A stretch of 64,000 bases of DNA. Source: a phage. This document shows positions 4,297 through 25,834 of this stretch, piece after piece (the stretch's first letter is position 1; every line of letters begins with the position of its first letter). The notes under the pieces are model-generated. The model was not told where the DNA came from. It saw only the letters and a list, made by a program, of their open reading frames with translations, and searched no databases. Both the position numbers and the translations under genes were made by a program. The stretch lies in the NCBI GenBank assembly GCA_018027755.1, contig GCA_018027755.1_4098.1; one strand, written 5' to 3'.

Positions 4297-4330
4297 AAGA
4301 AAAGGAGAGCAATATGCTCTCCTTTTTTAT
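4297..4330. terminator. bidirectional intrinsic terminator between convergent genes
   Basis: 10-bp stem aaggagagca/tgctctcctt (4302-4311/4315-4324), flanked by A-run upstream and T-run downstream. Confidence 0.6.
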
Positions 4331-7300
4331 TACTTAACTAATAATATATTTTTAATATCATTACCACTAACTTGTAGACTATCAGTGTATACTGAAAGAT
4401 CTATAGTGTAACTATTTTGTGTGTAACGTTTTAACATATCATAATTACCTAAATTAATTCCATTGAAAGAATATGTAGTATTAAGTTTAAAATCATGTTC
4501 TGCACTATACATTACACCACGGAGTAAATTATTTGCATTTCTAACTTCAACTTTTTCATATCCAATCGATATAATATCATTCATGTTCGCGGCTGAACCG
4601 GATAAAACATTATTTCTAATACTATAAGGACTTATTGATTTAGGTTGAGAAACATAGGTTGTATTTTCTTCACTAATGGTTGTGATGTTAGTAACAGTAC
4701 CACCAACAACACCGATGTACATACCGTCAACCATTGGATATCCATAAACCCATATACCTTCATTATTTCTAAACGGTTGAATAACACTTGAGTCATATTC
4801 AATAACGTTGATTTCTAAACTATCAGTCATTTTAGTTCTTGCTAATTCACTAAGAACTCCCGCACCAGTAATTGGTAGGTTATAACCGTTGTCGATAGTA
4901 ATTCCATCAACATCAAATATTTCGTTAGAGATTATCCAAACGTCAACGTCATCTGGTGTTATTCCGTCATTGTACTTACCACCATTTAAAGTAGTATCGT
5001 AGAAAACATCATAATTAATTACATCAATTGTGTAATTTCTATTTTGTTCGTACAATTTGATACCATTCTTCACAAATTCTGGGTCAGCAAATGTTCTAAC
5101 ACGAACAATGTTCAATGCAAGAGGCTGTACTGGCTCATTTTGTTGTGCAAGAGTGATATTATCATAACGGAGAACTGTACCAGTACTCTCATCAATCAAT
5201 TCAATCGTTTCTTTACCTGTATTTCTTACAGTGAATAGGATCGGAGTTGTATTGTTTTTGATGTTAGATACACGCAAGATTGTTTCCCATGTGTGATTTT
5301 GATATCTCACAAAATCTTCACCATCAGGAGTGAAAATCATCACCTTATCACCATCAGATAGGTCATTGTCAACTATTTCTGCTTCAGTTAAGCTATTAAT
5401 AGATCTCACACGATAGAAATATTTTTCATCAAACTTCGATGTTGTTTTATTAATATCATTTTCAATCTTAGCATATGAAGGAATACTTACAATTGCTTCT
5501 GTATGTTTATATGGATTGATAATTGCCATACCTTCAGTTTGATATCTGCTGTTATCACGTAATTGTACAAGAGATACATTGTCAAACCCATATCCATCAA
5601 CTGTAAATCTAATTTGACCTACATCACGCCCAGAAGGGTTTATGTCAGATATATCCACAATATAAGGATCAACTTCATCATCTTTAACTTCCCATTTTAT
5701 TGAAGAAGTTTGAGATTCCAATGCTAGGTTATCAAATGCATTCATATCATTGAAGTACTTAGCTTCAGTAATACTATCAAGTATATATTGATAATCAGAA
5801 TACATTGGATTATTTTGATCTAGTGGTAAATCATCAAGATTTATTTCAGCTAGTTCAACCATTTCACCATTTGTGATAAAATAATCTTCCATGAAATCAT
5901 CAATACTTTGTTCATCAGGTATGCTTTGATATACACCGTTAACATTTAAGTAAACATATTTTCGTGGAATCATTGTAATTGCATAGATATCAATTGGGGT
6001 CTTACTAAGAATCTCTTCAGCTTTTTCGTACTTATCAGTAGCGTCTTTGTCGAATAACCCTCTCATACCTGCTAATACGTGAATAGCATCAGTATAGAAA
6101 CGGGTATCACCACCTACTTCATCATAACGATAAACATATACACCATACTCAACTTCAAGTTTAACTTTTACTTCATAGTCTGATGCGTCAGGATTTTTAT
6201 CTTTAATTAATGAAATGTATTTTTGATACAATTCACTGCTTATTTCAAAATATCCATAGTTATAATCATTACTAGAAGAAAAGCCTAATGGAAGTCTAGT
6301 ACTAGGATTGTCATTATAAGTAAGTCCACTAAATCCACATCCAACTTCATCGTGAATTTTCTCATCACTTATATCTTTATAAAGTTTCAAACGGTTTGCC
6401 AATGTGTTATACTGAACATATTGTCTAAGGTCAGTAAACATATCGTTATGCGTTGATTCTTTATAAACACGTTCCAATGTAGCAGTGAATTCATCAGTTG
6501 CTTCTAAATCTTCCGCATGGTCTTTATACCACTGGTTAACGCCATATGCTGTTCCTAGTGTTACATCCAATTCTGGATAGTAGATTTGCATTTGATAAGC
6601 AATAAGAAGATCGAAAGTTTCTTCACTATATTCTGGGAAAGAATATATATAACGTTGTAATTCATAGTTACTAACAGCATCCTTTTCATTGGATTGATAT
6701 TTGTTATTAACACTTACTAATTCATTTATGCTTGCCAAATCTTCATTTGGTTTACACTGAATATTATCATAATGCATAATAATATCAATTTCTTGGAATC
6801 TTCTATTTGGTGTAACGAAATCACTTGGTAGTGAACCTACCTGTTCCCATTTTTGGGTAATTTCATTAAATTGAGCGTACTCATAATCCCAAATATCTTT
6901 TTCAGTTTTGATCCAAGAACCATCAACGAAAATATATCCATTAGGATCTAAATCATTACATAGACCTTTTATTAAATCATCATCAGATGTCTTTTGCTCT
7001 ATTTGTGAACGAATTTTAGTTCTATAAGGTTTAACTTCTTCAAAATATTCAACAATTTGATTAATCAAATTATCGTTTGAATAGTTTTGAACTAATGATT
7101 GTTCCAAACCAACAATATAGATATATGATGTTTTAAATACCCAATCCACAACACTTTGTTCAACATGTACATATTTGACCATATCAAAAACAATTTCGCT
7201 TTGATGTAAATCGAAAGAATTTTTGAGTAAAGCTAGTGCTTTACGAACGTTGATTTCACGATTGCTTAGTGAACCATTATCATTATGAACACTATAATCT

Positions 7301-10300
7301 GCGTAAAGCATATCATTGAGTTCAACTGTACTGTTTTCACGACCAATCGCTTTCCAATAAATTGAATCGCGTGATTGTGATTTAATATACAATGTCCAAA
7401 TGTTTTCACTATCGGTAACTCTGATAATATCGCCAACTTGGTAGTTTTTAGTATTAGCATCTTCTAAGCTTGACTCTTGAGTATAAGTCGTGTTACTATC
7501 ATACCCAACATCATACCAATCAGCATATGACCAGTACTGAGTCATGTCCAATGAAGTTCCTAGTGATTCAACATAATCAGATTGTTTAATCATTTTATGT
7601 TGTCCCTCACCTTTGTTCTCTAACGTTATAGTAACAACACTACCCGCGTTTGCTGGACTATTCATTAACTGAATATATCCATTTTCGTCGAAGTGAATAA
7701 AATAAACAGCACTAGAAGTTAATGGATTTGGTAGATATCCACTAGTACTTAAAATAACAGCGTCATTTTCTTTAAATTTATCACTTTCAACTGCAATAAC
7801 TAATTCATTATTGTAAGACAATACACGGAAAGAAACTTCATTCGGATTAACTTCAGTGGTTTTAACATTAAACACATCTTCCATAACAACACTATTAGTG
7901 GTTATGTTTTGTGACCTATAATAATTATTAGCACTTTCTACAAAGTTTCTACGAGCTTCTATAACATTTTGGAACCAAGTTTTGTTTGATCCTAAACCGT
8001 TATCAACATCTGGATATAATAAATTAATCACAGAACCTGATTCAGTTGTTTCTTGACCAATTAGTGAGTTCCACATTGAATCCCAAATTAGTGGGTTAAA
8101 GTTATAGCTGTCACCTTCTTTACATAGTTGATACTGGTCATGTTTAACAACTTCAGTACTATCCATGTAATAAGAAACAGTTAAAATACTGGTATCATCA
8201 TTCACTTTAAATTGCATATTACTAAGAATAAACGAGTTTTCATTGATTGGAGCGAACCAAGGAATGTTTAGCTGTGTTGGATCTTTAATAATACGAGCAA
8301 TGTCAGTACATGATTTTGTTCTGGTATGTAGTGGTGGTACATAAATTGTATCACGTACCCAGAAATAGTATTTTGTCACATAACTATCAGTTGAACTATC
8401 ATATTCCAAAAATGTACTATAATTATCTTCAAGTGCAGTTCCACTTGGTAGATACATAGTATTATTTTTGTTTTTCTTAGCAACATCTTTACAGTATTTG
8501 TCCCAGTTATATGGCTCAACTGGTGAACAAACCCACTCTAACACATCAATTGTACTATGTGGTAATAAACGACCCCAGTTGTAACGTTTGTATTCATTGG
8601 TTGCATCAATGTCAACATTACCGTCTGCGTCATAAATTGCACGTGTATAATCCAAATAAAATGCAGTACTTGTATTCCACCATACTTGACCAACTTTATC
8701 AGCACCCCAAGCCTGAATTAATTCACCATTGCTATTATATTGTGCTGGGTCTATTGGTGACGTATAAGTTACGTTTTGCATTGCTGCACCAGGAATAACC
8801 CCATTGATAGGGTCATACACATTTAGATATAATGCAGTAATGTTAGTACGTTCATCATATGTAGTTGGACGGTCAAAAAAAGTACTTTGTGGTGCTTTGT
8901 AACTATACTTTTTGTCAATATATGCTTGACGCTCTTCTGCACTGGCAAAACGTGATACATAACGATACAAACGTGGACGTGTATCTGGATCAGTAAATTC
9001 AATATCAATAGATGTGTCAAATGGAACTACCATAACTTTAGGATCAGAACCAGCAGTATAATATTGACTTTCTACTGTTAAAGTATCTGGCATAAAGTTA
9101 GTTTCATCAACAAAATAATAATAATCACCATCTTCAAGTGGTACATTATCAGTTAAAGTTACTTTACAAAATTGTTCAGCATACACATCGGTATTTTCAA
9201 TAGGTGTTATAGAAACCATTTGTACATTAGTATCAACCAATTCAAAAATGTTCCACAAACCATTACCGTCTTTAAACATCCACACAGATTCAGGATTTTC
9301 ACCTTTACCATTAGTATAAGTTATGCGGTCATTATATGCAGTACTGAAATCTTTTGTTGTGTACGATACTTCATCCAATGTTACTGGACCAATATCTGGA
9401 AGTTGGATATTTTCACTTCTTCCACTACGCATTGGGAATGAGAACTTACCATTTGGACGTGTAATCCAACGAGGATCTTTACCCTGCTCACCGAAGTATA
9501 CAATATGATTACCATTACCATTTGAAGTTGCATTTACATCAAAAGAAACCATTTGAGGTTGTTGTTTAAATTGGTCATTAATCAATTTAAATTGAAGATT
9601 TTTCTTACCATCAATATTACCATATGTACCAATTTTAAATGCCCATTCTTGTAATGCTTTATATTCATCTGTGTCATATGATTTAGAAACACGAAGTACA
9701 CGTTCTAAAACTTGGTTAGTACCTTTATCATGAATGAATCCTTTATAGAAATCAACACGACTAACATCACTACTAATCATACGCTGTAGATAATCACGAG
9801 ATTGATAACCAATCAAATGGTTTGACAACTCTTGTAATTGTACATCACTTACTGGAGTTTCACTATCATAATAATGTTGGAAATCCGACACTAATTTTTC
9901 AAATGATGGTAGTGTTCCAGCTTCCAAGATAATAAATCCAGGAGCTTGTAGACGACCAGTCCATGAACCAGTAATGTAGCCATACATTTTAATTAATTCT
10001 TGAATAGAACCATAAGTTGGCTGATAGATATAATCACCAAAAATAGTCTTATCATCAAAAATAACAGCATGTTCATATGAACACAAACTTAAACGAATTA
10101 ATGCTATACGTTTATTGGATTCTAAAGTTCTAACAGTAAAGATATTACCAATACGAGAAGTTTCAATTTCATATTGACGTATACCTTGGTTGTTATCATC
10201 AAGTAATGACCACACACCACCGTTATTTTGTGTAATAGATTGAACTGAACCAAAGTCTGCACCAAATTTAGCATTTGCTGCACTTGGTGTACAAGAAATA

Positions 10301-13300
10301 AATTCACCCGTTACCAGAGAATTCTGACTCCAGATCACAAAATCTTTAGCAATAGTGTTCCAATCTTGTTGAGCACCACTATCATTTACATCTTCAAAAA
10401 TCCAGCCATGTTCTTTAAGATATTCACCATAACCACAAATAAAAGTATAAACTTCTTGGTAACTATTAAAAACTTTACCATATTCAATGGAAGCTTCAGA
10501 TTTCCATTCGTTATAATGAACAACATTGCGGTTTTCTAATTTAAGAGTTACTTTTCTACCATTTTTTACGGGAAGTTTATATTTAAATTTAGCACCAACT
10601 AGATCATATCCATCAATCTGATATGCACTACCATTCCAAGTAATTTTGATCGCACTCATTTGCTCATCACGGATATTATTAGAACGAACAAGACCAATGG
10701 TTTGGTTTTCTTGTGAAATAAGACCGAAAGATTTAGCATTGAATGTTAGCTGATCTGCTTTAGTAAAACCACCAATTTTATGACCAACATTTATATAAGA
10801 AGAACGAACTACATCCCCATATTTGGTTGTAATGTTTTTATTTTGATACATCAAATAATCACTAACAAACATTTGATAACCAATTGTTCTTGTGTTATTT
10901 TCACCATGAACTACAGTGTTTTTATCAAAATTAATACGCTTACGTGTATCACCATAAAGGAATTGTGAACCATCAGTGAATACTTCTTTTAAATTGTCAT
11001 TTCGGGTATCCCAAAAATAGTTAGCAAATTGTGCTGGTTTAGCTTTATACAAAAGCATCATTTGGTCATATGCAAACAATGTAGTGTTCATGTATGTAAA
11101 TTCCATGTCACCCATATCACCATATGTCCAAGGTTCTGCTCTATGATTTAAAGATCCAGACACTAAACCTAAAATTTCAGGTGCAATATATTCAACCACA
11201 CAAATATCAATACCAGAAGATGTTTTATTTCCAGTTTTTGTAATTTTGAATGGCTGTACACCAAATCTTTTATATTTGTCATATTGACCACGACGATCAC
11301 CAAATAAAATAGTTCCAGTACTGCTATCTCCGATAGTGCCGTCGATATCCCATAGACCACTAGGAACTAAATCTCCTTGTTCATTCATAACAAGTGCTTC
11401 ATATACATATACCACATCACTATCACGCTCACCAACTTGAACAGCAGTTGGTTCATATTCTTGGTTCCACCAAGTTGGACGCTGTGAAAAGCCAAACATT
11501 TCCCACGGATGTGTTGCAGGGCGATATGTACCATATTGGTCAGTATAAATTGCACGCCATGAACCACGAGCAGGAATTTCAGTACTTTGACCATTAACTA
11601 CATAATAAGTGCCAGTATAGTTCCAAGTTCTCCAATTGTTAGGATCATAATCATGTGTACTATTACTGATACCATTAGTTGCGGTGAAGTTAATGTATCC
11701 ACGTAGTAATAATGTTTGTTTCTCTTCAGCACTATATTCAGTTTTAGTGAAATATGGTGTAGGGAAAAGGTCATCACTATTCAATACTGGTACGTAATCA
11801 ACATCTTTGAATTTATTATCAATACTATTAAAAATTCTATTTTCTAATTCATATACAACATCATCCATTTTATCAACACCATTGATAACACGGTATGCTT
11901 TGGAAATAATACCAGTATGACTGATGTTATAACAGCTTGGTTTACTACCAGCAGTGAGGAATGTCGCTTTTTCTGGTACATATGCTTGAAGAATACCTAA
12001 GAACTGTGGTGTTGGTGGTATAAATGCACGAATGAATCCAGAAGTACTTCCAACATTATCATAATAGAATGGGAATGAACTATCACGTCCCATATTAATA
12101 GTAGTTAAAATTGCATCAACAATGTTTGCAGCACTATTTTGTAAAAAGTCTGATGGATTTTCATCATACATACGAAGCATTTGTGTATTAAATTTATTAA
12201 TGAATCTAAAATATTCAGATTGCATAAACATAGTTGCTTCAAACAAATCAATATCTTCATTTGCAGTATGTGCCATCAATGGAAGCATAGATGCTTCATT
12301 TTGGATAATTTTAGTACCTACGCCATTATTAACCAATCCTTTAGCCAAACGTTCTTCATAGTCATTGAAATCATCAGAAGAACCACGTGTAATGTTCTTT
12401 TGAATAATATCCTGAAAATGTAAAGTGTAGTCACCTTGGTTAATGTATATAATATTAGAATTATATGGGTTATTTTGTAGGTTGATTGGAACTTCATATG
12501 CACCTAATTCTTTATTAGGAGTTACAGTACTGCTATAAGTTCTGATTTGAATAACAGAATCTTCATCCAAATCTACAGTACTATCTAGAGTGATGCTTTG
12601 TACTTGACCTTTTGAAACATTTTTGGTATATTTGGACACATCAACACCATCAACCACAACTTCAATAATATCAGAATCATTATCTAAAACTTTTTGTGCC
12701 AATTCGAATGTATGGTCATATTTTACAATCTGAACACCATCACCAGTAATTGGATGCCAATCTAGATAAGTTTCACGGTCAGCTTTATAGTACTGATATG
12801 TTCTATCAACTTCAATAACATATGCATACATACCATCAACTGGTTCTTTAAAAACTTCCATATCATAAACAGTACTGAATACACGATACATATCAGTACG
12901 TTGGACTTGTGGAGTTTGTTTTACAAATTGTTTAGAGTACTCTTCTGAACGAACCCAATCGGTTTGAAGATTCATTTCATTATTTTCATCAATAATGTTA
13001 TAATAGTATAAACCATCAATTTCAACTTCTTTCCCAAGATGGTCATAGGTATAACGTTGGGATTGTAAAAAGTTTTCATAAATGTAATAATTATAATCAC
13101 CAAGTTCAATGTTATATCCATATACACTATCAGTTGCATAGTTGTAATTTATTTTAAAACCAAACAACTCTGAACCTTTAAAGTTACTTGATGGATATGT
13201 AGTACTGTTGTCAAGTTTGATACCATTACGATCATAAAGTTGGAATTTAGGGAATACGTTAACACTAGTTTTTGATTGTGCACGAACCCACAAAGATCCA

Positions 13301-14331
13301 TTCCAGTACATAGAACTATTACCATACTCATTACCTTTAGTGATTAGAACAACATCACCATCTTGTGGTTCACCACTTGGGCGTGATTCGGTTTCTTCTT
13401 CTGGATCTAGTGCTAAACCATAAACACGAGTACCATCTTGCATTTTTTTCACATATACATTATAAATTCTATTGTTTTCACCATTGTTACCAATACTGGT
13501 GAATAGAATACGCATTCCATCTTGCGGAATAATACCATCAATACGTATACCACTATTAATATCTTTTTGAACGATATCTTCAGGTTTAATAATATCAGAG
13601 AACAGATCAACAGTTCCACGGAATTTTGTACCGTAGTTAATTAGCTCAATATTTTTATTATATTCAATAATTGGTGCACGTGCACGAATAAAACGTGAAT
13701 CTTGCATTAATTCTTCAGTTAATATTGAGCCATCTTCTAATGTTTCACCTAAAGTATACCAAAAGTTTTGTAGTGACCATGTATTACCATTAAGTGCTCC
13801 ACGTTCCATTACAATGTAATCAGGTGAAGTAATATTATAAGAGTTTTTAGTATCCCAAAGATATGAGCTAAAATTGTTCATTTTATTTGGGTTAATAGCT
13901 GGAGTCCATGCATAAAACTTACCGTTGAACAAACGGCTTTCATTATCGGTTAGTGCTCCATAATGATTCATGTATCCAACTAGATCATCATAAAATTGAA
14001 TTGAACGAATTGTCGAATCATCATTTTTTGAGACGTAAGCAGTGGACAACTGATAAAGTTGACGTGCTACAGTACTTTCATGTAAGAAGATATTACCAGC
14101 AGCGGCAGGAGAACCCATATCACCAATATAGCCGTCAACTAATTCGTTTTCAGCCGGATTAAACCATTGTTGAATAACATCATCACTGACTTTTTGAATA
14201 TCTTCTAAGCCTTGCATCCACTCAGGCAATCTTTTAATAAAAAGCTTCTTCTGTACTGCTTCAGCCATCTGTGTAGGTTGAAACTTAAAATTATTAGTCA
14301 TTTTTGGACTCCATATAATTCGTTCATTCAT
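4330..14331 (-). CDS. giant structural protein (3333 aa), probable baseplate/tail-fiber component
   Basis: single uninterrupted 10 kb ORF immediately downstream of gp6-like gene in the baseplate operon; no recognizable catalytic motifs; position analogous to T4 gp7-gp12 region. Confidence 0.6.
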   Translation of the reverse strand: MNERIIWSPKMTNNFKFQPTQMAEAVQKKLFIKRLPEWMQGLEDIQKVSDDVIQQWFNPAENELVDGYIGDMGSPAAAGNIFLHESTVARQLYQLSTAYVSKNDDSTIRSIQFYDDLVGYMNHYGALTDNESRLFNGKFYAWTPAINPNKMNNFSSYLWDTKNSYNITSPDYIVMERGALNGNTWSLQNFWYTLGETLEDGSILTEELMQDSRFIRARAPIIEYNKNIELINYGTKFRGTVDLFSDIIKPEDIVQKDINSGIRIDGIIPQDGMRILFTSIGNNGENNRIYNVYVKKMQDGTRVYGLALDPEEETESRPSGEPQDGDVVLITKGNEYGNSSMYWNGSLWVRAQSKTSVNVFPKFQLYDRNGIKLDNSTTYPSSNFKGSELFGFKINYNYATDSVYGYNIELGDYNYYIYENFLQSQRYTYDHLGKEVEIDGLYYYNIIDENNEMNLQTDWVRSEEYSKQFVKQTPQVQRTDMYRVFSTVYDMEVFKEPVDGMYAYVIEVDRTYQYYKADRETYLDWHPITGDGVQIVKYDHTFELAQKVLDNDSDIIEVVVDGVDVSKYTKNVSKGQVQSITLDSTVDLDEDSVIQIRTYSSTVTPNKELGAYEVPINLQNNPYNSNIIYINQGDYTLHFQDIIQKNITRGSSDDFNDYEERLAKGLVNNGVGTKIIQNEASMLPLMAHTANEDIDLFEATMFMQSEYFRFINKFNTQMLRMYDENPSDFLQNSAANIVDAILTTINMGRDSSFPFYYDNVGSTSGFIRAFIPPTPQFLGILQAYVPEKATFLTAGSKPSCYNISHTGIISKAYRVINGVDKMDDVVYELENRIFNSIDNKFKDVDYVPVLNSDDLFPTPYFTKTEYSAEEKQTLLLRGYINFTATNGISNSTHDYDPNNWRTWNYTGTYYVVNGQSTEIPARGSWRAIYTDQYGTYRPATHPWEMFGFSQRPTWWNQEYEPTAVQVGERDSDVVYVYEALVMNEQGDLVPSGLWDIDGTIGDSSTGTILFGDRRGQYDKYKRFGVQPFKITKTGNKTSSGIDICVVEYIAPEILGLVSGSLNHRAEPWTYGDMGDMEFTYMNTTLFAYDQMMLLYKAKPAQFANYFWDTRNDNLKEVFTDGSQFLYGDTRKRINFDKNTVVHGENNTRTIGYQMFVSDYLMYQNKNITTKYGDVVRSSYINVGHKIGGFTKADQLTFNAKSFGLISQENQTIGLVRSNNIRDEQMSAIKITWNGSAYQIDGYDLVGAKFKYKLPVKNGRKVTLKLENRNVVHYNEWKSEASIEYGKVFNSYQEVYTFICGYGEYLKEHGWIFEDVNDSGAQQDWNTIAKDFVIWSQNSLVTGEFISCTPSAANAKFGADFGSVQSITQNNGGVWSLLDDNNQGIRQYEIETSRIGNIFTVRTLESNKRIALIRLSLCSYEHAVIFDDKTIFGDYIYQPTYGSIQELIKMYGYITGSWTGRLQAPGFIILEAGTLPSFEKLVSDFQHYYDSETPVSDVQLQELSNHLIGYQSRDYLQRMISSDVSRVDFYKGFIHDKGTNQVLERVLRVSKSYDTDEYKALQEWAFKIGTYGNIDGKKNLQFKLINDQFKQQPQMVSFDVNATSNGNGNHIVYFGEQGKDPRWITRPNGKFSFPMRSGRSENIQLPDIGPVTLDEVSYTTKDFSTAYNDRITYTNGKGENPESVWMFKDGNGLWNIFELVDTNVQMVSITPIENTDVYAEQFCKVTLTDNVPLEDGDYYYFVDETNFMPDTLTVESQYYTAGSDPKVMVVPFDTSIDIEFTDPDTRPRLYRYVSRFASAEERQAYIDKKYSYKAPQSTFFDRPTTYDERTNITALYLNVYDPINGVIPGAAMQNVTYTSPIDPAQYNSNGELIQAWGADKVGQVWWNTSTAFYLDYTRAIYDADGNVDIDATNEYKRYNWGRLLPHSTIDVLEWVCSPVEPYNWDKYCKDVAKKNKNNTMYLPSGTALEDNYSTFLEYDSSTDSYVTKYYFWVRDTIYVPPLHTRTKSCTDIARIIKDPTQLNIPWFAPINENSFILSNMQFKVNDDTSILTVSYYMDSTEVVKHDQYQLCKEGDSYNFNPLIWDSMWNSLIGQETTESGSVINLLYPDVDNGLGSNKTWFQNVIEARRNFVESANNYYRSQNITTNSVVMEDVFNVKTTEVNPNEVSFRVLSYNNELVIAVESDKFKENDAVILSTSGYLPNPLTSSAVYFIHFDENGYIQLMNSPANAGSVVTITLENKGEGQHKMIKQSDYVESLGTSLDMTQYWSYADWYDVGYDSNTTYTQESSLEDANTKNYQVGDIIRVTDSENIWTLYIKSQSRDSIYWKAIGRENSTVELNDMLYADYSVHNDNGSLSNREINVRKALALLKNSFDLHQSEIVFDMVKYVHVEQSVVDWVFKTSYIYIVGLEQSLVQNYSNDNLINQIVEYFEEVKPYRTKIRSQIEQKTSDDDLIKGLCNDLDPNGYIFVDGSWIKTEKDIWDYEYAQFNEITQKWEQVGSLPSDFVTPNRRFQEIDIIMHYDNIQCKPNEDLASINELVSVNNKYQSNEKDAVSNYELQRYIYSFPEYSEETFDLLIAYQMQIYYPELDVTLGTAYGVNQWYKDHAEDLEATDEFTATLERVYKESTHNDMFTDLRQYVQYNTLANRLKLYKDISDEKIHDEVGCGFSGLTYNDNPSTRLPLGFSSSNDYNYGYFEISSELYQKYISLIKDKNPDASDYEVKVKLEVEYGVYVYRYDEVGGDTRFYTDAIHVLAGMRGLFDKDATDKYEKAEEILSKTPIDIYAITMIPRKYVYLNVNGVYQSIPDEQSIDDFMEDYFITNGEMVELAEINLDDLPLDQNNPMYSDYQYILDSITEAKYFNDMNAFDNLALESQTSSIKWEVKDDEVDPYIVDISDINPSGRDVGQIRFTVDGYGFDNVSLVQLRDNSRYQTEGMAIINPYKHTEAIVSIPSYAKIENDINKTTSKFDEKYFYRVRSINSLTEAEIVDNDLSDGDKVMIFTPDGEDFVRYQNHTWETILRVSNIKNNTTPILFTVRNTGKETIELIDESTGTVLRYDNITLAQQNEPVQPLALNIVRVRTFADPEFVKNGIKLYEQNRNYTIDVINYDVFYDTTLNGGKYNDGITPDDVDVWIISNEIFDVDGITIDNGYNLPITGAGVLSELARTKMTDSLEINVIEYDSSVIQPFRNNEGIWVYGYPMVDGMYIGVVGGTVTNITTISEENTTYVSQPKSISPYSIRNNVLSGSAANMNDIISIGYEKVEVRNANNLLRGVMYSAEHDFKLNTTYSFNGINLGNYDMLKRYTQNSYTIDLSVYTDSLQVSGNDIKNILLVK

Positions 14332-17842: not shown

Positions 17843-17907
17843 AATTTATTCCTTTAAATCAGTAAAGTACTAGATCAGTACTGGGAATTATATATAGAAA
17901 TATTTAT

Positions 17908-17940
17908 TCAAAAAGAAAAGCACTCCGAAGAGTGCTTTTA
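17908..17940 (-). terminator. intrinsic terminator/attenuator hairpin
   Basis: aagcactc-cgaa-gagtgctt hairpin (17918-17937) with A-run upstream on + strand (T-run on minus). Confidence 0.45.
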
Positions 17941-17943
17941 TAA

Positions 17944-18354: not shown

Positions 18355-18843
18355 TTATACGGATTCAACGATACGTGCCATCTTTTCCGCTCGTGAAGTG
18401 GTTTGTTTATACCATGTACTATCACGCAATTCTTTACCAGCAGTTTTGTAATCAGCTTTACCTAATGCGGTCATTGCTTTTTTAAATTTCAAAACTTTGG
18501 TTTTTCCCATTTGGAATACCATTAACCATAATACACGTTGTACCTGTACTGGTGCGGTCATACCGAATTGTTCATAAATTGATTTTGCATCATTGTACGC
18601 AGTTTGAGCATCTTTGAGAAGAAGTTGGTCAGCTTGAGCTTCGGTCAAACCATTCTTGAAATTTTCACCAGGAAGAACTAGATGACCATAACCAATAGTA
18701 TCAAGACCTAAACTGTCTTTATATACCCAAAACTTATCATTTTTAAAATAACCAAGTTTTTTCTGATAAGCAATAGTTCCTTCAAATTCTTTAATTTCCT
18801 TAAAAAATTGCTCATCTGTATTTTTAATTTCCCATTTACTCAT
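18355..18843 (-). CDS. T4-type lysozyme (GH24 muramidase), free-standing
   Basis: 162 aa; catalytic E...D-x5-T pattern (EFEGT...DSLGLDTIGYGH) and MVFQMG motif typical of T4 lysozyme family. Confidence 0.85.
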   Translation of the reverse strand: MSKWEIKNTDEQFFKEIKEFEGTIAYQKKLGYFKNDKFWVYKDSLGLDTIGYGHLVLPGENFKNGLTEAQADQLLLKDAQTAYNDAKSIYEQFGMTAPVQVQRVLWLMVFQMGKTKVLKFKKAMTALGKADYKTAGKELRDSTWYKQTTSRAEKMARIVESV

Positions 18844-18879
18844 AAAGATATCCTCGTTTTATTTATAGTGCTAAAATAT

Positions 18880-21543
18880 TTATTGACATGCCTCCAAACG
18901 ACGAGCCATTAACTCCGCACGGCGTGTGGTTTGGCGATACCAAGCAGAATTGCGGATTTGTGCCGCTGCTTGTTTATAATTACCTTTTGCCATTTCTGAT
19001 AACATAGTTTTAAATTTCAATACACCACCTTTACCCATCTGAAATACCATTTGGCATAGTACTTGTTGAGCAAGATAAGGAGTTTTCATGTTATATGAAG
19101 CATAAATTGATTTGGCATCATAAATTGCTTTACTACTATCACGAACTAACATATCATTTGCTTGTTGTTCAGTTATTCCATCAGAGAAGTTTTCACCGCT
19201 AACAATTAAGTGACCGTAACCAATAGTTGGATATCCACGACTATCTAAATAACGCCAGAACTTACCATTACGATAATATCCCTTTGCTTGTTGATATTGT
19301 AATGTACCCTCATATTCTTTTAATTCAGAAATAAACTGAGCATCACCTGGAACAACTTTCCAATCTATGGCTGTTTTATCAACATTACCTATATTATAAG
19401 TTGGTTGCTCAACTGGCGTAGTTGAAACACCACTTCTTTGTGTTCTTCTCCTACGAGGAACATGTCGTGAACCACGTTGTGAATAACCTGTACCAATTGT
19501 TTTAATTTTTGTAGTAACTACTAATTCATCACTATCAACAGAAGGTTGCACTACTGCTTGAGGTGCAGATTGATTGGTTGCTTTTCCTGCAATTAATGTT
19601 TTATTGGCTGCGTCAGAACCAGTACCAGTTTGAGATGCATAAAATAGACCCGGATCAACTGAACCGCTAAAACCAAGCACGTTAGCTGATGTAACACGTA
19701 TTTCAAACTGTATAACACCATTTGCTTTACCAACAACTTGGCCTTTTTGAACAACATCTTTGTTTAATAAATCAGATTGAATATTATAAAATACAGATTT
19801 ATATCCTGACTTATGTTGTATTAACAGTGCACCATTAGTAATTACTATTACACCACCATCGGGTGCAACTATGTCACCTTTACATTGTATTTCCCATCCA
19901 GAACGATCTGACTTCCCACCACTTTGTGTTGGAACACCTTTCCCCCAATAACCATATTGGCGAATAGTACCACTACATGGCATGAACATATGTAAACCTT
20001 CATATGTAATACTATATCCAGTCATCCCAGGGTCAGATGTCATTAAATCTTGAGATTGCACTTGTTCAGTTTCTGATGTATAGTTAACAAACTGAACAGC
20101 TTCAGTGTCTTGTGCTACGGGTAATTCTGGTGATACATCATTTGCTGGTTGTGGTTGTACTGGTGATTCACTAGAACCACTTCCACCACCTTGTCTTGGT
20201 GGTTCAACATAACTACCATGATTTTCAGCGTTAACCCATGCAGCAATATCATGAATGTGTTCATTAAGACCAGCAGATGGTGTTCTAAAGTTTGGTGCAG
20301 TAAATTCAGCAGTACCGCTATTACCACCACTATTAACTGTTAATGTTTGACCACCACCACTAATAATTGCTGATGATGATCCAATTAGGTTTGCAGATGT
20401 TGCGGCAGAAATAGAAGCATTTGAACCAGCCGTAATATCAGTACTGCTACCACTTTGCATACGTAATGATGCAGCAGTAACTAAACGAAGGTCTGCCCCA
20501 GAATTAACAACAACTTGACCACCAACTTTTGCATCAAGAGCACCAATTAGATCTAATTTAGTATTTGCACCAACTCGTGCATTGAAATCTTGTCCGGTTT
20601 CAATATTATATGAACGTCCAGCAGTAATATTAATATCTTGACCAGCACGAATATTAATATTCTTATCACAATGCATGTCAATATCACCTTCACCAGTGAA
20701 TTTTATACGTGCAGTGCCATCACGGTTAATTAAAAGAACATCACCAGTAGCTTCTGATAAAAGAAGTTGTGCACCACTACGTGTTTTTATTACGACACCT
20801 TCATTTTTACGAGAACCAACACGTGTATCGTTTACTGGGTTATTAAATTGTGTATCTTGATATCCATCTGGGTCTTGATCCCACGTTGGTGCTGTTAATT
20901 CCTCTTCAGTATATCCATCATCAATAATAAAACTATTACCACGTGGCGAAGACATACCATATACAGTACTGGTGGTTTGACGAGTACTACTACGATTCGC
21001 CAACCCAGCTTCTTCGTCATATAAAAGGTTTTGCTTTTTAAGACCTGCGATAATTGGAACGTTAGCATATTTGTCTTGCATATCGGTAGTGATAGTGTTA
21101 CGATCATAGTCAGTAACAGGAAGTGGCATATCAGTTCCACCATAATTACTTACTTCAGTTGCCATACCAGGAACCATAGTATTCATACGCTGGTCATATA
21201 CACAACCAATCCAATATGCTTGGAATGTACGGGCTTGTGCAAAAATTACAACAACTGTACACCCTACATCTGGTGGTACTGCCCAAAAACCATATCCTTT
21301 TGGATATTGACCATATGCATCAGCACTTGGAATACCTGGTGTTTTGCCAGCAAAAGGAGACATGTAAGATGCTTCTATCCATGATTCTTTTGAGTTTTTA
21401 TCACTTTGAGAACCTTGTATCCAAACTTTCAGTTTTCCTGATTTAGTTGGATCTCTGTTATCCATAACAGTTGCTAACTGCGGATAAGATGGGTCAAAAC
21501 GACCCAACTGCTGTTGTGCATACTTTTTACTTGTATCTGCCAT
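18880..21543 (-). CDS. baseplate central spike, gp5-like: N-terminal OB-fold, beta-helix repeats, degenerate M23-like segment, C-terminal GH24 lysozyme
   Basis: 887 aa; N-terminus resembles gp5/VgrG OB domain; Gly/Ser/Ala/Asn-rich repeat block; C-terminal 150 aa ~50% identical by eye to the adjacent free lysozyme (LDSRGYPTIGYGH, MVFQMG). Confidence 0.75.
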   Translation of the reverse strand: MADTSKKYAQQQLGRFDPSYPQLATVMDNRDPTKSGKLKVWIQGSQSDKNSKESWIEASYMSPFAGKTPGIPSADAYGQYPKGYGFWAVPPDVGCTVVVIFAQARTFQAYWIGCVYDQRMNTMVPGMATEVSNYGGTDMPLPVTDYDRNTITTDMQDKYANVPIIAGLKKQNLLYDEEAGLANRSSTRQTTSTVYGMSSPRGNSFIIDDGYTEEELTAPTWDQDPDGYQDTQFNNPVNDTRVGSRKNEGVVIKTRSGAQLLLSEATGDVLLINRDGTARIKFTGEGDIDMHCDKNINIRAGQDINITAGRSYNIETGQDFNARVGANTKLDLIGALDAKVGGQVVVNSGADLRLVTAASLRMQSGSSTDITAGSNASISAATSANLIGSSSAIISGGGQTLTVNSGGNSGTAEFTAPNFRTPSAGLNEHIHDIAAWVNAENHGSYVEPPRQGGGSGSSESPVQPQPANDVSPELPVAQDTEAVQFVNYTSETEQVQSQDLMTSDPGMTGYSITYEGLHMFMPCSGTIRQYGYWGKGVPTQSGGKSDRSGWEIQCKGDIVAPDGGVIVITNGALLIQHKSGYKSVFYNIQSDLLNKDVVQKGQVVGKANGVIQFEIRVTSANVLGFSGSVDPGLFYASQTGTGSDAANKTLIAGKATNQSAPQAVVQPSVDSDELVVTTKIKTIGTGYSQRGSRHVPRRRRTQRSGVSTTPVEQPTYNIGNVDKTAIDWKVVPGDAQFISELKEYEGTLQYQQAKGYYRNGKFWRYLDSRGYPTIGYGHLIVSGENFSDGITEQQANDMLVRDSSKAIYDAKSIYASYNMKTPYLAQQVLCQMVFQMGKGGVLKFKTMLSEMAKGNYKQAAAQIRNSAWYRQTTRRAELMARRLEACQ

Positions 21544-21556
21544 AATATTTTATTCC

Positions 21557-23806
21557 TTAATCAACTATACTATCGTGACGTTTGAGTGCACGAATTACAA
21601 TTGCAGCTTGAATTTGTTGTGTAAAAGAACCACCTGCACCAAAATCATGAACAATTTTATTAACACGATAAATTGTTTGGTTAAATGTGGTTGGTGTATT
21701 AATATCCAAAACACCAGTGTTATCATTTATTGATATTACTGGTTGTAATTTCAGTAATAGATACGCTTCAGATGTTATATAATTTGCTACATGATAATCA
21801 TCTGGGTTAATTTCCATATCTTCACCATTAATTACTTGTTCTAGATATTGTAAGTAAGAGTAATCACTCCACCCTAACCAGTACGGGTCGCCTACTACAC
21901 GCATATCGAGTTTACACAAAAAAGGTCTATTGTAATAGTTGTCACGTATTTTACGTCTATCCATTTCATATGTGCTGCTGTTATCGTTTAACGAAGCGGA
22001 TAAAGTTGTTTCATTGTTAGTTGCTTCGGTTGGCATTGTGAACACTTCACCATAACGGTGACCAACACCATCAGTACCGCCATCGTTTTCTTCATAAGTG
22101 GTTACATAATCCTCAATATATTGAGGTAAAACATTGACTTGATAGTTATTATAACGGTCTTGTTCTTCTGCGTTACCAACCTGCATTTGATTTTTTGCTA
22201 AAGTTTCAACTTCAGTTAACAATTGTTGTTGGGCTTGTGTTAACATCCCTCCTAAATCACGAGTTACACGTAAATCACTTGTTTTTGCCCATGCGTCTGG
22301 TATACTATTGTATTGTACACCTTGAATATTGAGTTCTTGGGATGTATGTGTACCTGCATGGTTCGCTACATCTTGTATCGGACCAGGGTTACGTGTAGTG
22401 GCTACGAAAAATTGCTGATCGAATTTCAAATCCAAATCAAGTATCTCACTATTAAGCCCACTAAATTGATAATTATAAGTTTTCATGTTTATTTTTGGTT
22501 TTTGATCATTAGGATCTACGTATTTTTCTGCGTTCTCGAAAAAGTACTCAAATGTGAAATTTTCAGGTTGTAAATCCGATTCATGAACAATATCACCTAT
22601 TTTAAATCTAACAATATAAAAAATTACTTTATAAACAGAAGTATTACGATAATTATCAAAACCAACGTATTGTTTAACTGGTATAATGTTTACAAATTGA
22701 CGCACACTAGTACTATCATCGGCTTGTACAGTACATGTATCAATAACGTCATCAATAATTCGAGATATAGGAGTACTTGGGTTCCATGAAAAGTTTTTAG
22801 AACCTTGTGCACCACTTTTAGTTGTTCCGGCCTCTGCCATTTGTTTAGAATCATAGTTTATAAACAAATCTTGCAAATCAGGTGCTACTTTAAATTCGAA
22901 AAATTTACCTTCGGATAATTCACCAAATTTATATCTAAGATAACCATATTGTTGGTCAGCCATCTGATTTAATTTATCTTCTAAATCAAAGCAGAAGTCA
23001 CCAAAGTTTTCAGCAGTACAATTGAATGGTTCTTTTAAGGTCCATTCAATGTTATCAACTAAAGCTGCTCTATTATGAACTAAGTTCATAGTATACATCA
23101 TAGTACTACCACTTTGTGAAGCACTTGCAGTAACACTATTAATTTTAACTGACCAGCGTCTTGTTGTTTCTGGGATAATTTCAGGTATTCCATTTTTATT
23201 AAAGCCAATAAACTTTAATTCCAAGATCAATGGCAAGTCCATAAATTTATGATATCTAAGTTTGTTACTTAACGAAATTAATTCATCATAAAGACTCATA
23301 CTATTATTTTCAGACATATTAAGTACTGCTGTATTAAAACAATAGTTTGTTGTCATTCCTGGTGTTGAAGGTCCAGCTTGTGTCATTTGTACACTAGTGA
23401 TATTATATTTGCCAGTAACACCACTTTCTGATATCACATGTCGTTGCACTTCTGCATCTGGGTAAAGCCAAAAGTTTTTAAAATCATCTTTATCTAAGGC
23501 AAATAAACAAAAGTGCCATGTTGGATTATCATATTTCAATAATTTATTGTCATACGGTATTACAAACTGACTTAAATCTAGATCTTCATAAACTTGATCA
23601 ACACTAGCACTTTGTTTTGGTAATGATACTACATTACTTACATTTGCTTTGTAATTATTTTTTGTAATAGTTTTCACATCATTTTGTAATGTATTTGCTG
23701 TAGCTTTCAAACTATCAAGTGCATTAGATGTGGTGGTTTTAGCCTTACCAGTAATACTTGTAATATCATTTTGAAAATTATCAACTGTACTTCGTAAATC
23801 TGCCAT
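21557..23806 (-). CDS. hypothetical baseplate/tail structural protein (749 aa)
   Basis: long ORF in the same minus-strand operon immediately upstream of gp5-like gene; no motif recognized. Confidence 0.5.
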   Translation of the reverse strand: MADLRSTVDNFQNDITSITGKAKTTTSNALDSLKATANTLQNDVKTITKNNYKANVSNVVSLPKQSASVDQVYEDLDLSQFVIPYDNKLLKYDNPTWHFCLFALDKDDFKNFWLYPDAEVQRHVISESGVTGKYNITSVQMTQAGPSTPGMTTNYCFNTAVLNMSENNSMSLYDELISLSNKLRYHKFMDLPLILELKFIGFNKNGIPEIIPETTRRWSVKINSVTASASQSGSTMMYTMNLVHNRAALVDNIEWTLKEPFNCTAENFGDFCFDLEDKLNQMADQQYGYLRYKFGELSEGKFFEFKVAPDLQDLFINYDSKQMAEAGTTKSGAQGSKNFSWNPSTPISRIIDDVIDTCTVQADDSTSVRQFVNIIPVKQYVGFDNYRNTSVYKVIFYIVRFKIGDIVHESDLQPENFTFEYFFENAEKYVDPNDQKPKINMKTYNYQFSGLNSEILDLDLKFDQQFFVATTRNPGPIQDVANHAGTHTSQELNIQGVQYNSIPDAWAKTSDLRVTRDLGGMLTQAQQQLLTEVETLAKNQMQVGNAEEQDRYNNYQVNVLPQYIEDYVTTYEENDGGTDGVGHRYGEVFTMPTEATNNETTLSASLNDNSSTYEMDRRKIRDNYYNRPFLCKLDMRVVGDPYWLGWSDYSYLQYLEQVINGEDMEINPDDYHVANYITSEAYLLLKLQPVISINDNTGVLDINTPTTFNQTIYRVNKIVHDFGAGGSFTQQIQAAIVIRALKRHDSIVD

Positions 23807-23817
23807 ACGTTACTCCA

Positions 23818-24132
23818 TTAGCCTATGTTTCGAGTACCATTAAGATAATTTTGTACTCTTTGATTTGCTGGTATTCTAATTGTTACTCCACTTTTAAAAT
23901 TATATATAGGATCTTCTCCTAGTATGTCTGGATTTAACAATGCGAAAATATAATATAAGCGTTCATTACCATACATTTCGTATGCTAAACGCCAAGGTTG
24001 ATATTCATATTTCAATGGGATCTCATAAAAATCATCAGTATCAGCCGGAACAATATCACGTGGTAAATTATACCCAAGATACCATGTTTGTTTCACCTTA
24101 GCGTAAGGTGAGTATTGACTATAGTTGGACAT
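23818..24132 (-). CDS. hypothetical protein (104 aa), baseplate operon
   Basis: ORF translationally coupled (TAATG overlap) to the upstream 273-aa gene. Confidence 0.45.
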   Translation of the reverse strand: MSNYSQYSPYAKVKQTWYLGYNLPRDIVPADTDDFYEIPLKYEYQPWRLAYEMYGNERLYYIFALLNPDILGEDPIYNFKSGVTIRIPANQRVQNYLNGTRNIG

Positions 24133-24953
24133 TAAATGAATCCTCCTTTACGTAATAGTTCACCACGTTTGAATGCATTGAGGTTGAACGTTTTAGTCAT
24201 ATAATCCGATGTTGGTTGTTCTTCAAGTTGTAACATAACTGAGATTTTTTGTGGAACCCAAACTTCATCTTGTGGGTTCATATATCCAGTACTTCTAAGT
24301 TGTTCGAAGAATTTTCTACTATCCATGTCGGATAAATTAAAAGTACTATCGCTACTATTCAACGGAACTTGAATATAAGAAACATCATTTGGGTAAGTAA
24401 AATTATAAGATTTTAAAATAACAGGAATATCATTATATGTATAACGACCATATCCACTTAGAAGTAAGATTGGTGGTGGTGCACCTGCAATTGCGAGTTC
24501 GGGGTTATTAGCCGAAGCAGCTTGTCTACCAAAATCCATCAACGAAACAGAACGTATAAAATGAACACATGCCAACGCATACATAGCTTCTGCTGCTGTA
24601 TTCGCATAAAATTCACCCTGAATCGTGAAAACTGTATTAGTAGTGTTCTTATAGTTGTTATAGTTACTGTTAGTATGTATAGGGGACTGTGTTTCATACT
24701 GAATTGACCTTTGTTCAGTAATTGTTGGTGTTACAGTCCAAACCAACCCATTAGTTGGACGCAGAAACGAAAGTAGAGTTGGTTCGGAGCTATCTCCAAA
24801 ATCACCATATACATAGTTAGCACCTGCGGCTTTAGGTCGTAATCGAATTCTACGATCAATCATCTTTTTGATTCTCCATAATAAGGGAACATTTGATGTA
24901 TTTATACGTGGGACAAACTGCTTTTTGGTGCTATAATAACATTGATGGTACAA
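24132..24953 (-). CDS. hypothetical baseplate/tail protein (273 aa)
   Basis: first ORF of the minus-strand structural operon, divergent from gp55-like gene. Confidence 0.45.
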   Translation of the reverse strand: MYHQCYYSTKKQFVPRINTSNVPLLWRIKKMIDRRIRLRPKAAGANYVYGDFGDSSEPTLLSFLRPTNGLVWTVTPTITEQRSIQYETQSPIHTNSNYNNYKNTTNTVFTIQGEFYANTAAEAMYALACVHFIRSVSLMDFGRQAASANNPELAIAGAPPPILLLSGYGRYTYNDIPVILKSYNFTYPNDVSYIQVPLNSSDSTFNLSDMDSRKFFEQLRSTGYMNPQDEVWVPQKISVMLQLEEQPTSDYMTKTFNLNAFKRGELLRKGGFI

Positions 24954-24994: not shown

Positions 24995-25834
24995 ATGACA
25001 AATAGACCAAAGCGTAAAAAGTATCTCAATAATGCTGATTTACTGCGTGAAATACAAAAAAGTAAAATTTCATATTGCTGGTTATTAGACAAATCATATA
25101 GTATGTATGATTATATTGTTTTTCATGAGTCAGAAATTACTGCTGAGTTACTAGAAAAAGCTAAGGCAGCCCGAATTAAACGACTGAACAATGAAATGCT
25201 TGATAGTATTCGTGAAAAGGAAAATATGAGTGCTAAAAAAGCTAAAGAATATGCAGATGAACACAATTTAGTTATCACTGACGTTCCAATTGATGAAGTT
25301 GTTATTCGTGTTATTACAGATGAACATATTCCACCAGATACTAGAGTTAACTTTGAACCATTCAAGCATTATATTGTAGATAATGAAGGTATTCTCTATG
25401 AAGTTTGTCGTTCTCACTGGAAAGGCGACCTTGAAACTGGTGAATTCAGTACTGTTCATGGTAAAATTACAAATGAACTTGGGAAGATGTTCATTAAACT
25501 TGCAGAGGAAATCTCACACAAATCTAATTACAGAAACTATACATACTTAGATGAAATGATGGGTGATGCAAGAATACAATTAGTTAAAAACGCACTTCTC
25601 TTTAAAGAGAGCATTCTTTATAAAAAAGATAAACCAGCAGTTCAGCTAAATCCTTTCTCTTACTATACATCATTCGTAAACAATAGTTTTCGTTCTATAT
25701 TGAATAGTGAGAAAAATGTTCGAAATATACGTGATGATTTACTTGAAATGCATGGCTTTACGCCATCACATACACGTCAAATTGAAATTGAATTGAACAT
25801 GATTGAAAGGAAAAATGAAGATGGCTCTGTTTGA
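24995..25834 (+). CDS. late-transcription sigma factor, gp55-like (enlarged)
   Basis: N-terminal KYLNNADLLREIQKSK resembles T4 gp55 KYNYVNNKELLQAI; located next to gp47/gp46 as in T4; 279 aa vs 185 aa in T4. Confidence 0.6.
   Translation: MTNRPKRKKYLNNADLLREIQKSKISYCWLLDKSYSMYDYIVFHESEITAELLEKAKAARIKRLNNEMLDSIREKENMSAKKAKEYADEHNLVITDVPIDEVVIRVITDEHIPPDTRVNFEPFKHYIVDNEGILYEVCRSHWKGDLETGEFSTVHGKITNELGKMFIKLAEEISHKSNYRNYTYLDEMMGDARIQLVKNALLFKESILYKKDKPAVQLNPFSYYTSFVNNSFRSILNSEKNVRNIRDDLLEMHGFTPSHTRQIEIELNMIERKNEDGSV

Follow-up and report, generated by a model that had tools for sequence, protein, structure and literature searches.

A VgrG-type baseplate spike of a 121Q/RaK2-like jumbo phage carries a degenerate LytM domain and a C-terminal lysozyme with an adjacent free paralogue

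In a 64,000-nucleotide stretch of phage DNA (contig GCA_018027755.1_4098.1 of assembly GCA_018027755.1; hereafter the window), two adjacent genes on the minus strand encode a protein of 887 amino acids and a lysozyme of 162 amino acids. We found that the 887-residue protein is, by its domain content, the gp5/VgrG-type baseplate central spike of a jumbo myovirus of the 121Q/RaK2 type, and that it carries behind its needle a LytM domain of the peptidase M23 fold which, judged from its residues, cannot be an active peptidase, followed by a T4-type lysozyme domain predicted to be catalytically intact. In the reading that we consider probable, the protein is a trimeric VgrG-like needle to which the dead LytM domain and the lysozyme are tethered as cargo, and the free lysozyme gene is an old duplicate of the lysozyme-coding 3' end that was kept as a soluble muramidase.

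Spike identity and N-terminal half

In DNA, the 3.2-kb region that holds both genes shares 99.7% identity with Escherichia phage 121Q, one of the RaK2-like jumbo myoviruses (genus Asteriusvirus); with PBECO4, phAPEC6 and phages related to these the identity is 94-95%. Genes resembling gp53, gp25 and gp6 flank the spike gene and give it a baseplate context. A search for relatives of the 887-residue protein found 86 full-length homologues. The orthologues phAPEC6 gp241 (PMC7247149) and CBB_240 (PMC5259590) were detected in virions by mass spectrometry.

The spike gene and the segments of its product are the following.

18880..21543, minus strand: baseplate central spike gene, an open reading frame (ORF) of 887 amino acids with its stop codon at 18880-18882; orthologue of 121Q gp587, RaK2 gp078 and CBB_240.
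21196..21477, minus strand: OB-fold of the gp5/VgrG type (Pfam Phage_base_V), residues 23-116, for attachment to hub and tube.
20812..21195, minus strand: densely invariant stretch, residues 117-244, the most conserved part of the spike, which matches no family.
20269..20811, minus strand: Gly/Ala/Ser/Thr-rich triple-beta-helix needle, residues 245-425, assigned from DUF2345, periodicity and profile matches.
20251..20259, minus strand: HxH motif H429-I-H431 directly after the beta-helix, a candidate metal (Fe) cage of the Apex type.
20023..20250, minus strand: linker 1, Gly/Ser/Pro-rich, residues 432-507, with short conserved ANDV and VQ..N.T.EV..DL motifs and a predicted local distance difference test score (pLDDT) below 50.
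19609..20022, minus strand: degenerate LytM (Peptidase_M23-fold) domain, residues 508-645, without catalytic or Zn-binding residues.
19372..19608, minus strand: linker 2, residues 646-724, with a conserved motif at residues 672-700 and a basic run.
18883..19371, minus strand: GH24 (T4-type) lysozyme domain, residues 725-887, with E745, D767 and T773 and a pLDDT of 81-92.

Analysis of the N-terminal half revealed an OB-fold and a beta-helix. Phage_base_V scored 33.8 bits on residues 23-116 (cut-off 23.8) and 29.8 bits with the full protein, and the spike profile aligned with the OB-fold region of the VgrG protein 9jg8_G. From residue 278 onwards the protein matched DUF2345, the beta-helix family of VgrG (39.1 bits, cut-off 30.7). 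BLOSUM autocorrelation of residues 245-425, a block composed of 13% G, 12% A, 10% S and 9% T, showed a period of 8 residues (z = 7.6 relative to shuffled sequences), and harmonics appeared at 16, 24 and 32; the needle of T4 gp5 likewise has a period of 8 residues. A profile of residues 1-446 matched solved VgrG spikes from type VI secretion systems (T6SS; E 8e-6), over OB-fold and helix alike, as well as spikes of extracellular contractile injection systems, the central spike of cyanophage A-1(L) and T4-like gp5. The AlphaFold2 (AF2) model of the full-length monomer had a predicted template modelling score (pTM) of 0.29 and was taken for domain boundaries only, not for the arrangement of the domains. 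Its pLDDT was below 50 for the invariant residues 117-244, which probably fold only in the trimer or against the hub.

A degenerate LytM domain confined to these spikes

On the isolated segment of residues 508-645, Pfam Peptidase_M23 gave E 8e-4 and 20.0 bits, a score under the gathering cut-off of 28.7 bits; a precomputed PF01551 match is present in 13 of the spike homologues. When a 26-sequence profile of this segment was compared with solved proteins, it matched LasA and SpoIIQ (both 1e-6), DipM (4e-5), zoocin A (5e-5) and EnvC (0.03), and the AF2 model of the segment reached a pLDDT of 85.7 and a pTM of 0.80. A search of 1.84 billion cluster representatives with the profile of residues 508-645 returned 1834 proteins at E <= 1e-3. 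Seven clusters were close (E 2e-30 or better), all of them spikes of 870-984 amino acids with the same architecture, and beyond these the E-values leap to 1e-17 and to ordinary multi-domain M23 proteins. Given the fold matches and this gap in E-values, we concluded that the assignment to the LytM/M23 fold is secure and that the subfamily is confined to these spikes. A fold search of BFVD revealed no closer relative; it showed M23 domains to be frequent among the tape-measure, lysin and hub proteins of phages.

To follow the active-site positions we used an alignment of 31 family members (37-78% identity) anchored on the motifs P-x-x-G-x-I...G-Y-W-G, I-x-H-x-x-G-Y, F-E-I-R and V-D-P-G. The position of the first Zn-binding histidine is occupied by tryptophan (W550) in all 31 sequences, and position 554 carries C, A, T, G, S, I or V but in no case Asp, so that the HxxxD motif is absent. 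The catalytic histidine of Y-x-H is replaced at position 588 by I, L, V, A or F (His in 0/31), and the HxH that would precede FE(I/V)R is absent as well, positions 610 and 612 being V and Q in the window protein and His in none of the 31. The same degeneracy was seen in the further cluster representatives P0117-P0120. A number of other residues of the domain are invariant, namely P522, G525, W550, R616, G624, G627, D630, P631, G632 and F634. Strong conservation without catalytic residues indicates selection for a non-catalytic role.

These results bear out what the first-pass annotation, made from the letters of the window alone, had proposed for the spike. It had described an 887-residue protein and a free lysozyme gene at 18355-18843 within 18355-21543, and both ORFs are found there, on the minus strand; it had given the domain order as OB-fold, repeat block, M23-like segment and C-terminal GH24 lysozyme, with which the Pfam and profile matches agree. 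The repeat block is truly periodic, the M23-like fold was recovered by profile and by model, and the reading of W/E and VIQ at the expected HxxxD and HxH positions proved correct. The catalytic E/D/T set of the lysozyme, which it had called intact, is present as E745, D767 and T773.

Comparison of the family profile with the LytM domain of EnvC by hhalign (query identical in sequence to 4bh5_A) gave a probability of 95.8% and E 7e-9, and in a manual column alignment EnvC W320 stands at the first-His position, as W550 does in the phage protein. Because regulatory and active LytM domains are not told apart by structural scores, we make no claim of a specific relationship to EnvC. A comparison with lysostaphin gave a mis-registered match of 49% and was not used.

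Two lysozymes and one ancient duplication

The free lysozyme gene lies downstream of the spike gene, behind a short spacer.

18355..18843, minus strand: free GH24 lysozyme of 162 amino acids (121Q gp586, RaK2 ORF073, CBB_239, LysUE1), tandem duplicate of the spike 3' end.
18860..18867, minus strand: TATAAATA, the consensus of T4-type late promoters, within the spacer of 36 bp that precedes the free lysozyme gene; a weak feature.

Pfam Phage_lysozyme matched the spike at residues 765-882 (E 2e-11) and scored 44.5 and 37.0 bits on the two window proteins (cut-off 22.3); among solved proteins, the spike C-terminus matched the lysozyme domain of gp5 and T4 lysozyme. Both window lysozymes keep residues equivalent to E11, D20 and T26 of T4 lysozyme and share a 13-residue insertion between the Glu and the Asp. 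The catalytic columns hold Glu in 30, Asp in 30 and Thr in 23 of the 31 aligned spikes, and in an alignment of 24 sequences that included T4 e the Glu and the Asp are present in all and the Thr in 20.

The free lysozyme is 52% identical in amino acids to spike residues 728-885 (82/158, E 7e-57) without a single gap. At the DNA level the two are 58% identical, third codon positions agree at 47%, and the longest exact run is 13 nt, and therefore the duplication is old. A neighbour-joining tree placed the free copies of the window phage, RaK2, Hallingskeid, pEa_SNUABM_12 and XaC1 in one clade (85.5% bootstrap) that groups among the spike C-terminal domains, with weak support for the nesting. Two distant spike homologues (40-45% identity) are followed on their contigs directly by a gp25-like gene, with no free lysozyme, and Xanthomonas phage XaC1 has one. 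The simplest history suggested by these comparisons has the 3' end of the spike gene duplicated in tandem once, in an ancestor shared by RaK2, 121Q, CBB and XaC1, after which both copies were kept. A recent duplication or gene conversion was considered and rejected, given the low identities, the 13-nt run and the monophyly of the free copies.

The earlier estimate of about 50% identity, made by eye, is thus close to the measured value, and its suggestion that the free lysozyme arose by local duplication is supported. The event is, however, ancient and not recent, low nucleotide identity being what the annotation itself had named as speaking against a recent duplication. Its further idea that the free copy supplies the endolysin is not shown; 121Q also encodes a rival, gp532 (see below).

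Spike and free lysozyme are adjacent in the window phage and, RaK2 excepted, in the relatives examined. In RaK2, four small hypothetical ORFs (ORF074-077, two of them on the opposite strand) lie between the two genes (L005 7391-8884), an insertion that is later. The octamer TATAAATA was examined as a dedicated late promoter of the free lysozyme. It also stands upstream of RaK2 ORF073, is absent in XaC1, pEa_SNUABM_12 and Hallingskeid, and occurs in 8 exact copies in the window, a number not above chance by a rough estimate from base composition; we therefore did not retain it as such.

HxH motif and linkers

H429 and H431, directly behind the beta-helix, are kept in 31/31 sequences in a region that is otherwise variable. 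HxH is the diagnostic motif of the Apex domain, in which it has been described near the C-terminus (bioRxiv 10.1101/2023.02.25.529910). The pair in the spike may mark an internal Apex, with the cargo leaving from the tip; the pLDDT of the AF2 monomer at the motif is below 50.

Both linkers, residues 432-507 and 646-724, are predicted to be disordered. Linker 2, between the LytM and lysozyme domains, carries the motif DELVVxTxVxSIGxxYSQRGSxxxPRR (residues 672-700; 19444-19530), in which V675, G691 and P696 are invariant. AF2 predicted a lone strand at residues 675-682 and disorder in the rest of this linker. The motif could be a docking strand or a site of processing or maturation cleavage.

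Proposed mechanism and alternatives

In the mechanism that we favour, contraction of the sheath would drive the trimeric needle through the outer membrane and carry three flexible, linker-tethered arms, each a dead LytM domain followed by a lysozyme, into the periplasm. There the lysozyme would cut glycan strands locally and allow the tube to pass, and the dead LytM domain would serve as a non-catalytic binding module, most likely for the peptide stems of peptidoglycan, that docks or orients the lysozyme. The tethered arms would in this way take over what the internal lysozyme does in T4 gp5, with the topology of an 'evolved' VgrG.

Several points weigh against parts of this picture. The trimeric state of the assembled spike and the position of the arms in the virion are predicted; the spike may be proteolytically processed like T4 gp5, which would change the notion of a tether. 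A PDB sequence search with residues 382-450 gave no meaningful match to solved Apex domains, and the HxH lies 456 residues from the C-terminus, unlike in the Apex domains described. The role of the free lysozyme in vivo is likewise only predicted.

It is unlikely, in our judgement, that the dead LytM domain acts inside the particle and does not bind the cell wall, whether by docking the arms on needle or hub, by silencing the lysozyme until ejection or by aiding trimer assembly. Known dead LytM domains are protein-protein modules (SpoIIQ-SpoIIIAH, EnvC-FtsX/amidase) and are among the closest matches, and the short conserved linker motifs and the lone predicted strand look like docking elements; the restriction of the domain to this spike family (7 clusters among 1.84 billion, with a gap from E 1e-30 to 1e-17) also speaks for such a role. 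However, no partner has been identified, and the AF2 monomer is uninformative on contacts between domains. The motifs of the M23 scaffold that form the groove (FEIR, VDPG) are kept, which fits the binding of a ligand equally well.

As to the free lysozyme, its position in the baseplate operon, flanked by the spike gene and the gp25-like gene and kept in five genera, might suggest that it is a baseplate or virion component or a factor for spike assembly and not a lysis enzyme. We consider this rather unlikely. The small lysozyme is not among the structural proteins of RaK2-like phages confirmed by mass spectrometry (PMC5259590), and it does not appear in the virion proteome of phAPEC6 (PMC7247149). 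LysUE1, which is 96% similar to 121Q gp586, acted as a soluble muramidase on permeabilised cells in vitro (PMC12805682), and distant relatives assemble the same spike without a free lysozyme.

The 162-residue protein has neither an export signal nor a transmembrane segment. Intergenic gaps in the spike/lysozyme operon are 0-100 bp and thus leave no space for a holin gene; none was found in this tightly packed baseplate operon, in its ORF list or its annotation, as the first-pass annotation had also noted. The window contains no third lysozyme. A third GH24 paralogue, 121Q gp532 (L009 8192-9118, outside the window), has an N-terminal transmembrane anchor and a LysM domain, and lysozymes of this LysM type were proposed as the endolysin in the CBB paper (PMC5259590). 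We regard gp532 as a candidate signal-anchored endolysin, and the free lysozyme most likely takes part in late cell-wall breakdown, together with gp532 or as its back-up, as far as can be predicted from the genes.

A further alternative for the dead LytM domain is that it mimics EnvC, NlpD or DipM and switches on host amidases (AmiA, AmiB, AmiC) or other autolysins in the periplasm, so that penetration uses host enzymes as well as the phage lysozyme. The hhalign match to EnvC and the tryptophan shared at the first Zn-His position speak for it, as does the presence of the amidase-activation system in the E. coli host. Yet EnvC ranks low in the HMMER profile search, behind LasA and SpoIIQ, and the column equivalent to EnvC K321 is variable across the spike family. 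T4-type lysozymes prefer peptide-bearing glycan, so that the stripping of peptides by amidases would work against the fused lysozyme. Moreover, XaC1, a phage of Xanthomonas, keeps the same domain, and so do relatives whose metagenomic hosts are unidentified. We find activation of amidases quite improbable.

That the M23-like domain is still a peptidase working through non-canonical residues is scarcely credible: the fold and its scaffold motifs show good conservation and H577 hardly varies, but in 31/31 sequences W or small or hydrophobic residues take the places of the three Zn ligands and of the two catalytic His, H577 is a structural histidine also kept in dead EnvC, and we know of no M23 enzyme that works without a Zn site.

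Neighbouring genes

On the minus strand the genes run in the order structural protein, gp53-like protein (104 amino acids), structural protein of 749 amino acids, spike, free lysozyme, gp25-like protein (131 amino acids), gp6-like wedge protein (1153 amino acids) and a giant structural protein of 3333 amino acids. The virion protein of 749 amino acids (21557-23806, minus strand) lies directly upstream of the spike, where a gp27-like hub partner is expected. It had no significant match in Pfam (one at chance level, E about 0.1) and none in the PDB by phmmer.

The giant protein, downstream of the gp6-like gene, is encoded by a single ORF (4330-14331, minus strand) and corresponds to the virion structural protein 121Q gp582; distant relatives keep homologues of 3300-3500 amino acids at the same position. 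Between the gp6-like and gp25-like genes the window has about 100 bp (17843-17943), at a place where 121Q carries the HNH endonuclease gp584, annotated as 'associated with group I intron'. The near-identical phages seem to be polymorphic here for the presence or absence of a homing endonuclease.

At 24132-24953 (minus strand) the mechanically called ORF starts from TTG (273 amino acids), and the 121Q annotation starts from an internal ATG (243 amino acids); a PHROG match to this ORF begins at residue 29. A gene for a gp55-like late sigma factor lies at 24995-25834.

Discussion

The published orthologues are the same protein as the spike of the window, with 58-99.7% identity, the same length, the same domain order and the same operon. 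Its layout was already known: the 'very unusual domain composition' of RaK2 gp078, along with its domain order and the three paralogous lysozymes of RaK2, was reported in 2013 (PMC3622015), and a central M23 match in CBB_240 with the adjacent T4-type lysozyme CBB_239 in 2017 (PMC5259590). A full-text literature search gave no description of a degenerate LytM domain in a phage spike. The death of the M23 domain across the family, the invariant internal HxH and the single ancient lysozyme duplication that is absent in deeper relatives are new details, not found in the accessible parts of the RaK2, CBB, phAPEC6 and LysUE1 papers. They are refinements of a known protein and not a new kind of system.

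The closest comparison is with T4 gp5 and gene e. The trimeric spike of T4 likewise combines an OB-fold with a GH24 lysozyme and a triple beta-helix of octapeptide period (the trimer being predicted for the protein studied here), the T4 spike lysozyme digests the wall locally during penetration, and T4 encodes a paralogous soluble lysozyme separately. In T4 gp5, however, the lysozyme sits between OB-fold and beta-helix, and the PAAR protein gp5.4 caps the tip. The protein studied here has its lysozyme beyond the needle, at the very C-terminal end, with an HxH behind the helix and an inserted dead LytM domain. The gene for the soluble lysozyme adjoins the spike gene here and is distant from it in T4.

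'Evolved' VgrG proteins of the T6SS such as V. cholerae VgrG-3 share the gp5-like OB-fold and beta-helix with a C-terminal peptidoglycan-degrading cargo, tethered by a linker, that rides on the spike into the periplasm of the target. Unlike VgrG-3, the spike is a phage virion protein without a fused gp27-like N-terminal module, a separate 749-residue gene standing upstream, and its cargo is a GH24 lysozyme with a dead LytM domain. The pairing of these two domains recalls phi29 gp13 (tail-tip morphogenesis protein 1; PDB 3csq), where the order is reversed, with the lysozyme N-terminal and the M23 domain C-terminal. The M23 domain of gp13 is an active Zn endopeptidase and that of the spike is dead; gp13 also lacks a fused beta-helical spike, and its phage is a podovirus that infects a Gram-positive host.

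A LytM fold with a lost catalytic site is likewise found in EnvC, NlpD, DipM of Caulobacter and SpoIIQ of Bacillus. These are cellular proteins of division or sporulation with coiled-coil or LysM partners and known protein targets, and apart from membership of the same superfamily no specific relationship of the phage domain to them could be detected. P2 gpV and phi92 gp138, which bear an Fe-loaded Apex, resemble the spike in their OB-fold, their intertwined beta-helix and the HxH right after the helix. In these two the HxH is near the C-terminus and forms the tip; here 456 further residues follow it, and the Apex fold is a candidate only.

The practical value of these findings is limited. Were the dead LytM domain a regulator or an activator of host autolysins, a phage tail would for the first time be seen to deliver such a domain, with consequences for our picture of cell-wall crossing by giant phages and for designing lysins fused to spikes. 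More broadly, one could imagine the domain as a spike-delivered switch of the EnvC/NlpD type that hijacks host amidases or autolysins, or as a gate on the fused lysozyme; we hold this to be improbable on present sequence evidence, and, if true, such a switch or gate, with an internal Fe-caged Apex and three arms, would represent a new mode in which a contractile tail carries a regulated cell-wall effector. The three GH24 paralogues, one fused to the spike, one free and one membrane-anchored with LysM, form a natural series in which a single module is re-used for entry and exit.

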